A stretch of DNA of 64,000 nucleotides from Escherichia phage EC.P1. Under the pieces are notes generated by a model. It saw only the letters and a list, made by a program, of their open reading frames with translations. It had not been told where the DNA came from and made no database searches. Made by a program: the position numbers and the translations under genes. Below are positions 14,209 to 15,797 of this stretch, one piece after another (positions within the stretch are counted from its first letter, which is position 1; every line of letters starts with the position of its first letter). The stretch lies in sequence record PQ657772.1; one strand, given 5' to 3'.

Positions 14209-14401
14209 GGATACGCTCACAATTAAGGCAATAAATGCACTCAATGTCAGGTCGCCATGATTTATCAAAATCTTTGTGCTGTTCTTCAGTGTATTCCGAA
14301 TCATCATTGATGGGAAAGAAATCACCAGCACCAGTGGCCCAGTCTGAATCTAAACGGAAACGAGCTAATTGAGTACTGTTGCAATACGGACATTTATTCA
14401 A
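14201..14401 (-). CDS. small zinc-ribbon protein (66 aa)
   Basis: CPYC ... CIYCLNC paired Cys motifs. Confidence 0.5.
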   Translation of the reverse strand: MNKCPYCNSTQLARFRLDSDWATGAGDFFPINDDSEYTEEQHKDFDKSWRPDIECIYCLNCERIHD

Positions 14402-14678
14402 AATTTATTCCTTCTAACTGATATACGTTTAATGAAAATGACCCACTATTATTATCGCATCTGAAACACAGTGTTAAAGAACCATTAAAACTAACAACAT
14501 CAGTACATATACATTTTTCACCATTGGATATGATAGATTTTCCTATATATAAATCTCTTACTATAGTACGGTAATGTTGCCATAAAAAATAATACACACT
14601 TTCATAGTACTCATCTTTTACATATGACAAGTATAAGAATTTATAAAATACTTGTATTTCCTTTAAGTTGTTTTTCAT
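14394..14678 (-). CDS. family C paralog
   Basis: N-terminus MKNNLKEIQVFYKFLYLSY. Confidence 0.55.
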   Translation of the reverse strand: MKNNLKEIQVFYKFLYLSYVKDEYYESVYYFLWQHYRTIVRDLYIGKSIISNGEKCICTDVVSFNGSLTLCFRCDNNSGSFSLNVYQLEGINFE

Positions 14679-14952
14679 TCTCCAACTCCAGTAAATTTAC
14701 ACCAATCCAATCAACATCACTATCAGTACTTAATTCCAATCGTAGCTTACCGCTATGACTAACAATATCGCGGAATTTGTATATTTTATTATCACGAACT
14801 ATACACAAATCATGGTAATATTCATGTAATTCATCCAAAAACTTTATCCATACCGAACGATAGATTTCACCGTAGAGATATTCTCCAGCATCAACCGTAG
14901 CGTATTGGATATACAAAAATTTGTATGTGAATTGTATATCATTAAGATTCAT
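14641..14952 (-). CDS. family C paralog
   Basis: N-terminus MNLNDIQFTYKFLYIQY. Confidence 0.55.
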   Translation of the reverse strand: MNLNDIQFTYKFLYIQYATVDAGEYLYGEIYRSVWIKFLDELHEYYHDLCIVRDNKIYKFRDIVSHSGKLRLELSTDSDVDWIGVNLLELENEKQLKGNTSIL

Positions 14953-14962
14953 ATGTCAATCC

Positions 14963-15274
14963 TTATAGGTCTGTCAACTTCAAAACTTTGATCTCCATAA
15001 ATTCCCTATCAGTTTTTTCAAGAAATTCAACATGGATAATACCTTGATAAGATTTTACACCTGAATATTCAAATATGTCATCTCCATCAGTGTAAGTACT
15101 GTAATTCTTTTTTATATATTCAGCAATAGAATCTAAGTAATCATAGTAATTATTAATAAATGGTGATTCTTTTGATTCGACATGTTCACCAATCTTCCCA
15201 CTAAAAAGATACATGTCATACAAACCATATATATTTTTATACGTGAATTGAACATCATTCAAATTTAATTTCAA
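14963..15274 (-). CDS. family C paralog
   Basis: N-terminus MKLNLNDVQFTYKNIYGLY. Confidence 0.55.
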   Translation of the reverse strand: MKLNLNDVQFTYKNIYGLYDMYLFSGKIGEHVESKESPFINNYYDYLDSIAEYIKKNYSTYTDGDDIFEYSGVKSYQGIIHVEFLEKTDREFMEIKVLKLTDL

Positions 15275-15531
15275 GGGAATATCTCCAGAGGAACACTCGT
15301 AAATCCAAAATCAGTGTAGAACTGGACCTCTACTTTACCATCGAGCTTAATGATTATATCTGAAAATTCTGCATGATCGTTGTTGATCATTACAGTACTG
15401 AATTTTTCTTTAATCCTCTCACGCACAATATTAATCATTTCAATACATGTATCTTCTAAAAATATACTATTATTTTTATTTGCTAGGTCACGAATGCACT
15501 TGAATGTTAATTGGAAATCTTTATAATTCAT
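15271..15531 (-). CDS. family C paralog
   Basis: N-terminus MNYKDFQLTFKCI. Confidence 0.55.
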   Translation of the reverse strand: MNYKDFQLTFKCIRDLANKNNSIFLEDTCIEMINIVRERIKEKFSTVMINNDHAEFSDIIIKLDGKVEVQFYTDFGFTSVPLEIFP

Positions 15532-15797
15532 ATATTCACCAAATCAACAGAGAATAAGTCGTTATCAAATTTATATGAAAGTACTAATCTACCACCAAAA
15601 CTATCGACTCTAAGTATCTTTCGTTTTTTCCCATTAATGAAAATTTCAGTATTAACAAAATACTCACGTAATTCTTCTAGGTAATTTGACCATAATTTAT
15701 GAGTAAACGCATTTTTATTAATTGTGTTAGTACTTCTATTATTGTGGTGTAATTTAAATAATTCCATATAAGTGAATTGTATATGTTTGTAATTCAT
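15528..15797 (-). CDS. family C paralog
   Basis: N-terminus MNYKHIQFTYMELFKL. Confidence 0.55.
   Translation of the reverse strand: MNYKHIQFTYMELFKLHHNNRSTNTINKNAFTHKLWSNYLEELREYFVNTEIFINGKKRKILRVDSFGGRLVLSYKFDNDLFSVDLVNI

Follow-up and report, generated by a model that had tools for sequence, protein, structure and literature searches.

A tandem array of five divergent small paralogous genes in an Asteriusvirus-type jumbo phage

Small protein inhibitors of host defence and host machinery, among them anti-CRISPR proteins, anti-restriction proteins and the early inhibitors of T4, are well known from phages, and the early genes of T4 also provide an example of the small ORFan arrays found in large phages. 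For the related jumbo phage CBB, 22 paralogous open reading frames (ORFs) have been described, together with a block of small genes with RpoD-like promoters that was proposed to be an early host-takeover region (PMC5259590). Here we analyse an array of five consecutive minus-strand genes, referred to as family C (copies C1 to C5), at positions 14394-15797 of a 64,000-nucleotide stretch of Escherichia phage EC.P1 (sequence record PQ657772.1), the whole of which is called the window below. Like the tandem ORFan arrays of other large phages, which we take as at least three adjacent same-strand homologous genes in one phage lineage, family C is co-directional, short and lineage-restricted, and lies in a dense region that is rich in host-type promoters and holds several independent arrays. 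No sequence relationship was found between family C and the known arrays, and for family C we infer both early expression and a part in host takeover. For a jumbo phage, the array is a well-documented but ordinary paralog expansion.

The array consists of exactly five head-to-tail ORFs of 86-103 amino acids (aa). C1 (15528-15797) encodes a basic protein of 89 aa with a predicted isoelectric point (pI) of 9.5 and is preceded by the ribosome-binding site (RBS) AAGGGGA, and C2 (15271-15531), the most divergent copy, encodes an acidic protein of 86 aa. C3 (14963-15274) begins with a TTG codon that has GGAG before it, and its 103-aa product carries, in the alignment, an insert of about 10 residues between two helices. 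C4 (14641-14952) also encodes 103 aa and C5 (14394-14678) encodes 94 aa; across the five copies, predicted pI ranges from 4.7 to 9.5. A Shine-Dalgarno sequence stands in front of every copy, and five genomes share the TTG start codon of C3 together with its GGAG. The stop codon of C1 overlaps the start of C2 as ATGA and that of C2 overlaps the TTG start of C3 as TTGA, while C4 and C5 share 38 nucleotides and C5 shares 8 with the next gene, which encodes a zinc-ribbon protein. The RBSs, the ATGA and TTGA start-stop overlaps and ratios of nonsynonymous to synonymous substitution rates (dN/dS) of 0.02-0.70 in all comparisons establish the members of family C as real coding genes. In GenBank the same five genes are annotated as hypothetical proteins, for example EcMJ_160-164 and genes 422-426 of phage 121Q.

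An earlier note, made from the sequence of the window, had proposed a tandem paralog set of five consecutive genes of similar length with a shared N-terminal motif. The span, the count and the motif stand, but the motif had been slightly idealised, as C3 and C5 have two additional N-terminal residues (MKLNLNDVQFTYK and MKNNLKEIQVFYK, respectively) and the motif of C1 ends in M, not K. Written as [DEH][IFV]Q[FLV][TF][YF][KM], it turns up five times when the window is translated in all six frames, always at the N-terminus of one of the five copies, versus a mean of 0.01 occurrences in mononucleotide shuffles. The synonymous codons used for the motif differ between copies and the constraint therefore acts on the protein; a role of the motif as a nucleotide-level element, either a recombination linker or a -10 element, was ruled out on the same grounds.

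Pairwise identity among C1 to C5 is only 19-30%. When hidden Markov models (HMMs) built from all copies but one were searched against 562 ORFs of the window, the omitted copy was recovered over its full length, with expect values (E) of 3.6e-8 for C1, 3.2e-5 for C2, 4.1e-15 for C4 and 8.6e-9 for C5. After the first 20-22 residues had been deleted from all copies, the corresponding values were 1.7e-7 for C1, 2.9e-7 for C4 and 3.3e-6 for C5, with weaker matches for C2 (0.006) and C3 (0.015), and the omitted copy always ranked above every other ORF of the window outside the training set. The similarity is thus not limited to low-complexity N-termini. All five copies also matched phrog_21004 over most of their length (E 2.4e-44 to 2.8e-4). 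The strongest of these matches were those of C4 (2.4e-44) and C3 (3.1e-35); C5 matched at 1.6e-4, covering profile positions 2-99 of 101, and C1 and C2 matched phrog_21004 at 8.6e-6 and 2.8e-4 and had matches to phrog_32291 (2.8e-30) and phrog_35943 (4e-44), respectively. Judged by these profile comparisons, C1 to C5 are genuine tandem paralogs, as the earlier note had supposed, homologous over their full length and forming one family. The three PHROG families of which they are members, all labelled 'unknown function', split the paralogs and record neither their tandem organisation nor their evolution, whereas the present comparisons show them to be one family with a common predicted fold. The note had also stated that family C has no relationship to two further paralog families, A and B, and that tandem duplication is recurrent in the region. 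The searches bore out both points: the family HMM matched none of the other arrays, profile-profile comparison with hhalign gave probabilities of at most 0.7%, and BLASTP clustering yielded further arrays of 31, 7, 7, 5, 3, 2 and 2 members.

A megablast search with window positions 13000-17000 returned 35 phage records, all from jumbo myoviruses of Escherichia or Salmonella in the genus Asteriusvirus, the 121Q/PBECO4 group with genomes of 320-386 kb; the best match was vB_Ec-M-J at 97.4% identity, and 121Q matched at 84%. With C4 as the query, tblastn likewise located the family in 35 phage records, all from Asteriusvirus-type phages of Escherichia or Salmonella. A word-indexed search of 5.8 billion proteins gave 5-25 matches, and an exhaustive HMM search across 1.84 billion cluster representatives returned 17 at E < 1e-3, 15 of them single-domain proteins of 88-103 aa, most of which, once aligned, proved to be array alleles of A4, JNE01 and other genomes compared below. 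The two larger proteins P0029 (1243 aa, 13 stretches, E 1e-14) and P0037 were considered as distant relatives and rejected as repeat-summing artefacts, P0029 because it also matches 15 unrelated Pfam families and none of its stretches is individually significant. Searches of Pfam, NCBIfam and PDB sequence profiles with family C returned sub-threshold noise only, and scans for additional copies, which covered the 64-kb window, the first 100 kb of 121Q and 35 kb of vB_Ec-M-J, found none. As far as these databases reach, family C is confined to the genus Asteriusvirus. One database representative, P0035 (96 aa), joins about 65 N-terminal residues of C2 type to fragments of the C3 insert and a C3 C-terminus. 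It looks like a chimera that may stem from an assembly artefact or, in some genome, from a deletion or an unequal crossover that joined neighbouring copies.

We compared the array in ten genomes: the window, vB_Ec-M-J, ph0011, WPEC5, UE-S1, 121Q, A4, JNE01, Turkey5 and SD-2_S15. Five copies are present in the first seven of these, while JNE01 has three copies and, further downstream, a divergent fourth, an arrangement that Turkey5 mirrors. In SD-2_S15 (a Salmonella phage, L010) four copies were detected, the C3 position being fragmented in a region with many short ORFs, which suggests assembly frameshift errors rather than real gene decay. In a neighbour-joining tree the copies cluster by position, from C1 to C5, and not by genome; the exception is A4, which has no C2- or C3-type copies and whose copies 1-3 are all placed in the C1 clade. 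Clustering by position indicates that the duplications predate the divergence of the compared genomes. The tree therefore places the family C duplications as ancient, with later birth-and-death evolution between three and five copies. Concerted evolution or gene conversion between copies was considered and rejected in view of the clustering by position across genomes, from which copies 1-3 of A4 are excepted.

Nucleotide identity to the window changes sharply from one copy to the next. WPEC5 is 96-100% identical across C1-C3 and C5 and 77% in C4, 121Q is 98-100% identical in C4-C5 and 68-79% in C1-C3, and in A4 the figures are 96-98% for C5 and the zinc-ribbon gene and 43-51% for C1-C3. C5 is the most conserved copy in the genus (96-100% aa identity in seven genomes, 59% in ph0011). 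This fine-scale mosaic indicates that recombination between phages has replaced individual copies. With the Nei-Gojobori method and orthologs from ph0011, 121Q, UE-S1, WPEC5 and A4, dN/dS was never above 1 for family C and lay at 0.02-0.2 for most orthologous pairs; divergent alleles of C4 and C5 gave 0.5-0.6, and the adjacent zinc-ribbon gene gave 0.02-0.06 versus the closer genomes. By this measure all copies of family C are under purifying selection.

The structure of C4 was predicted with AlphaFold2 from an alignment of 26 family sequences. The model has a mean predicted local distance difference test score (pLDDT) of 84.4 and a predicted template modelling (TM) score of 0.75, with residues 98-103 below 50. 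Two helices (residues 3-18 and 22-45) are followed by four strands (50-53, 56-66, 69-75 and 82-86), a short helix (87-92) and a disordered tail. The predicted fold of the family is thus an N-terminal two-helix hairpin packed on a small antiparallel sheet of four to five strands. Three positions are near-invariant, Y10, S65 and G68, the latter two being placed by the model at the turn between strands 56-66 and 69-75, and the other conserved positions are mostly hydrophobic, as expected for a core. The 13-residue C-terminal tail of C4 (pLDDT 26) is encoded by the 38 nucleotides at 14641-14678 that overlap the start of C5 in another frame; the tail is shorter in ph0011 and missing from A4.

Neither a catalytic-looking motif nor a membrane segment was seen in the sequences and the model of the family C proteins, which are small and soluble. 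A Foldseek search of the PDB with the C4 model returned no significant match (best E = 0.2). The nearest PDB neighbours of its C-terminal β part, a meander of four to five strands, are small barrels of the SH3/Tudor/KOW/WYL type, as found in CarD, Mfd, the C-terminal Tudor domain of PcrA, domain I of eIF5A/EF-P and the WYL domains of BrxR/CapW. Assignment to the WYL family was not obtained, with no Pfam WYL match and Foldseek probabilities of 0.28-0.84, a TM score of about 0.35 and E of at least 0.2, and family C likewise failed the tests for SH3 and Tudor families and for components of defence systems; the PADLOC defence-system models matched none of the copies or neighbouring genes tested at E <= 0.1. 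A search of BFVD with the C4 model returned the phage's own family and weak matches to small RaK2 proteins. As modelled, then, the family C fold is unmatched in the PDB, a statement that is limited to that database and does not extend to all structure space.

The window has a G+C content of about 32%, and nearly all of its genes are on the minus strand. On this coding strand we counted 20 near-consensus sigma-70 promoters (at least 11 of 12 positions) versus none on the other strand and 2.5 expected; five of the 20 are perfect, and nine, such as those at 63096, 62602, 61074 and 34016, lie 28-56 nucleotides before a gene start. These promoter matches suggest that the whole window is an early region transcribed by host RNA polymerase. 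The nearest strong coding-strand match upstream of the array is a candidate promoter at 17198-17226 (minus strand), a perfect match to the consensus TTGACA-17-TATAAT (12/12), and promoter scans gave two weaker minus-strand consensus matches at 16475-16503 and 14931-14959. The match at 14931-14959 (11/12) overlaps the start of C4 and was not adopted as the array promoter because 121Q and UE-S1 do not share its -35 element and transcription from it would begin within C4.

A terminator scan located an intrinsic-terminator-like hairpin on the minus strand at 15814-15838, with a GC-rich 9-bp stem and a T-run, between the upstream 205-aa gene and C1, whose RBS follows directly. Its folding energy is -15.8 kcal/mol (z = -3.8; none of 200 shuffles was as stable), and all seven genomes compared have kept it; where the stem differs, in A4 and JNE01, the changes preserve pairing. 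No promoter was found between this hairpin and C1 in the promoter scan. Among the papers searched, none describes family C or the timing of Asteriusvirus gene expression.

The reading that we favour, and put forward tentatively as a reasonable possibility, is that the family C proteins are early, stoichiometric, non-enzymatic binders of host proteins, either defence or housekeeping factors. In this scenario the array would lie in an early region transcribed by host RNA polymerase and would probably be reached by read-through of the conserved terminator hairpin before C1. Its products would bind host proteins early in infection, stoichiometrically and without catalysis; the conserved N-terminal helix and core would hold the fold, while the divergent surfaces of the paralogs and the swapped alleles would recognise different targets or target variants, and duplication and allele shuffling may let the phage cope with more host variants. 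By analogy, family C resembles the small phage inhibitors in its size of about 90-100 aa, its apparently compact α/β fold without catalytic residues, its narrow taxonomic range, its rapid allele turnover and its putative early-gene location. It differs from them in that we found no homology to any characterised inhibitor and in that its dN/dS does not rise above 1.

A bolder version of this proposal, which we consider unlikely in full, would see a new fold, a helical hairpin on an SH3-like sheet, in a recombination-shuffled inhibitor set, each paralog or allele acting against a different variant of an Escherichia coli defence or housekeeping protein. In such a set, the conserved zinc-ribbon protein might be the common partner.

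Several observations weigh against host-directed binding. The dN/dS ratio is below 1 everywhere, without demonstrated positive selection. The unrelated neighbouring genes at 13658-13948 and 13214-13516 are also mosaic, and mosaicism may be a property of the region rather than of family C. The neighbours are almost all of unknown function, which makes guilt by association weak; the exceptions are a Dam methylase gene and a cytidylyltransferase-like gene nearby, and genes for RNA ligase and polynucleotide kinase (PNK) further away. Transcription of the array is itself something we infer, given the conserved terminator and the promoter-free stretch before C1, and virion mass spectrometry, which bears on the last alternative below, can miss small proteins.

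The alternative that survives best is that the copies are dispensable, weakly selected ORFans, their duplication and shuffling being by-products of high recombination in an accessory region and no specific function being shared. The confinement of the family to one genus, the many other tandem arrays in the window, the extension of the mosaic to unrelated neighbours and dN/dS values of up to 0.5-0.7 in some comparisons are what such an account would lead one to expect. It is harder to square with the fact that no Asteriusvirus genome examined lacks the array, not even the divergent A4 and JNE01, with dN/dS as low as 0.02-0.2 for most orthologous pairs, with the conservation of RBSs, coupled starts and the upstream hairpin, and with a predicted fold that is confident and compact. 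We regard this explanation as improbable.

In a further alternative, the family C proteins would be factors for the takeover of transcription or nucleic acids, with the C-terminal sheet as an SH3/Tudor/KOW-like small barrel docking on host RNA polymerase, on Rho or on nucleic acid. The RNA-polymerase-interacting domains of CarD and Mfd, the PcrA Tudor domain, Rof and WYL domains would serve as models here, and the paralogs would tune host or phage transcription. We consider both the docking and this tuning role doubtful.

A comparably doubtful proposal has the five paralogs assemble into one hetero-oligomeric phage complex, or assist a phage process such as replication or nucleotide metabolism, instead of binding host proteins. 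In its favour, translation of the five genes is tightly coupled, seven of the ten genomes, or of nine with Turkey5 and the fragmented SD-2_S15 record set aside, retain both the number and the order of the copies, and purifying selection acts on all of them; yet three copies suffice in JNE01 and Turkey5, A4 lacks C2- and C3-type copies, and single copies have been exchanged for alleles of 40-66% identity next to neighbours of about 100%, which is hard to fit with co-adapted interfaces. That the family consists of minor virion or assembly proteins is very improbable: many small hypothetical proteins of these phages are virion-associated, but the 62 proteins that mass spectrometry detected in phAPEC6 virions do not include the orthologs gp386c-389c (PMC7247149), genes 422-426 of 121Q are labelled 'hypothetical' where other 121Q genes are labelled 'structural', and the structural modules are distant from the array, whose surroundings are rich in promoters and small genes.

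About 83% of the genes in these 350-kb therapeutic-candidate phages are of unknown function, and much of this consists of tandem families like family C. With its confident but unmatched predicted fold, its conserved expression signals and its copy-by-copy allele replacement, the array of five small proteins is a compact, tractable target within phage dark matter. Should its products bind host proteins, natural variation among the alleles would lead to the host factor by which host range is limited; should they form an inhibitor set, the alleles would be a natural series with which a new phage-host interface could be mapped.

Directly after the array lies the zinc-ribbon gene (14201-14401, minus strand), which encodes 66 aa with a CxxC...CxxC pattern and matches phrog_22354 at 4e-49. 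It is unrelated to family C (hhalign probability 0.1%) and is conserved amid hypervariable neighbours, with 95-100% aa identity in eight genomes and 85% in JNE01 and Turkey5. Its resemblance to the Lar restriction-alleviation family is sub-threshold only (E 0.19).

Two further minus-strand genes follow the zinc-ribbon gene and were considered as additional copies. The first, at 13945-14208 (87 aa, annotated start 14208), is a candidate very remote relative in its C-terminal β part only, with an hhalign probability of 54% over 43 columns, and was the top non-family match in three of the five N-truncated leave-one-out searches. The second, at 13658-13948 (96 aa, N-terminus MNIILIQKTYALL), is a candidate divergent sixth copy that matched the family HMM at E of about 2e-3 over the full profile and reached an hhalign probability of 57% over 72 columns. 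In control comparisons, five of six gene groups gave 2% or less and the neighbouring X100 group gave 4.8%. The gene at the corresponding position in JNE01 and Turkey5 matched the family HMM at 1.2e-6. The AlphaFold2 model of the 13658-13948 product is of low confidence (pLDDT 62) and has the same helix-helix-strand-strand-strand order, and a 96-aa protein of slurp01, probably its ortholog, matched the C4 model in BFVD (E = 2.5e-4, TM score 0.69-0.73). We treat both genes as candidates and not as members; there may be one or two extra, very divergent copies downstream of the array.

Weak similarity to the family C profile was also seen in two adjacent minus-strand genes of about 100 aa each, near the PNK gene, at 5084-5380 (HMM E 9e-4, hhalign probability 29.5%) and 5377-5736 (3e-3 and 7.5%). 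The product of 5084-5380 starts with MNLKLLLEQVHLLY, followed by a helix and strands. The pair may be very remote relatives or may merely have a common architecture.

Further downstream, a minus-strand gene at 12232-13164 encodes a 310-aa endonuclease-like protein with repeated Cys-pair motifs (phrog_681, 6e-21). Among the ten genomes it is present only in the window and vB_Ec-M-J, and ph0011 has a different gene of 494 aa at the site, which looks like a mobile (homing) insertion hotspot. In JNE01 and Turkey5, at 5699-6247, the counterpart of the window gene at 13214-13516, of about 100 aa, is tandemly duplicated.

The largest of the other arrays in the window comprises 31 BLAST-linked minus-strand ORFs, nearly all of 63-94 aa, at 52783-59193 with additional members at 36384-36575, 49999-50808 and 51871-52095. 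Most of them lie head to tail over about 6.4 kb, and the set is unrelated to family C (hhalign probability 0.4%). Several other paralog sets occupy the minus strand of 26862-52793: seven genes of 103-193 aa (at 26862, 32640, 49691, 50917, 51545, 52099 and 52455), seven of 146-164 aa (31761, 32995 and 38479-40791), five of 112-153 aa (34554-35241 and 40801-41974), and smaller sets at 37282-38168, 46369-48701 and 46910-47568.

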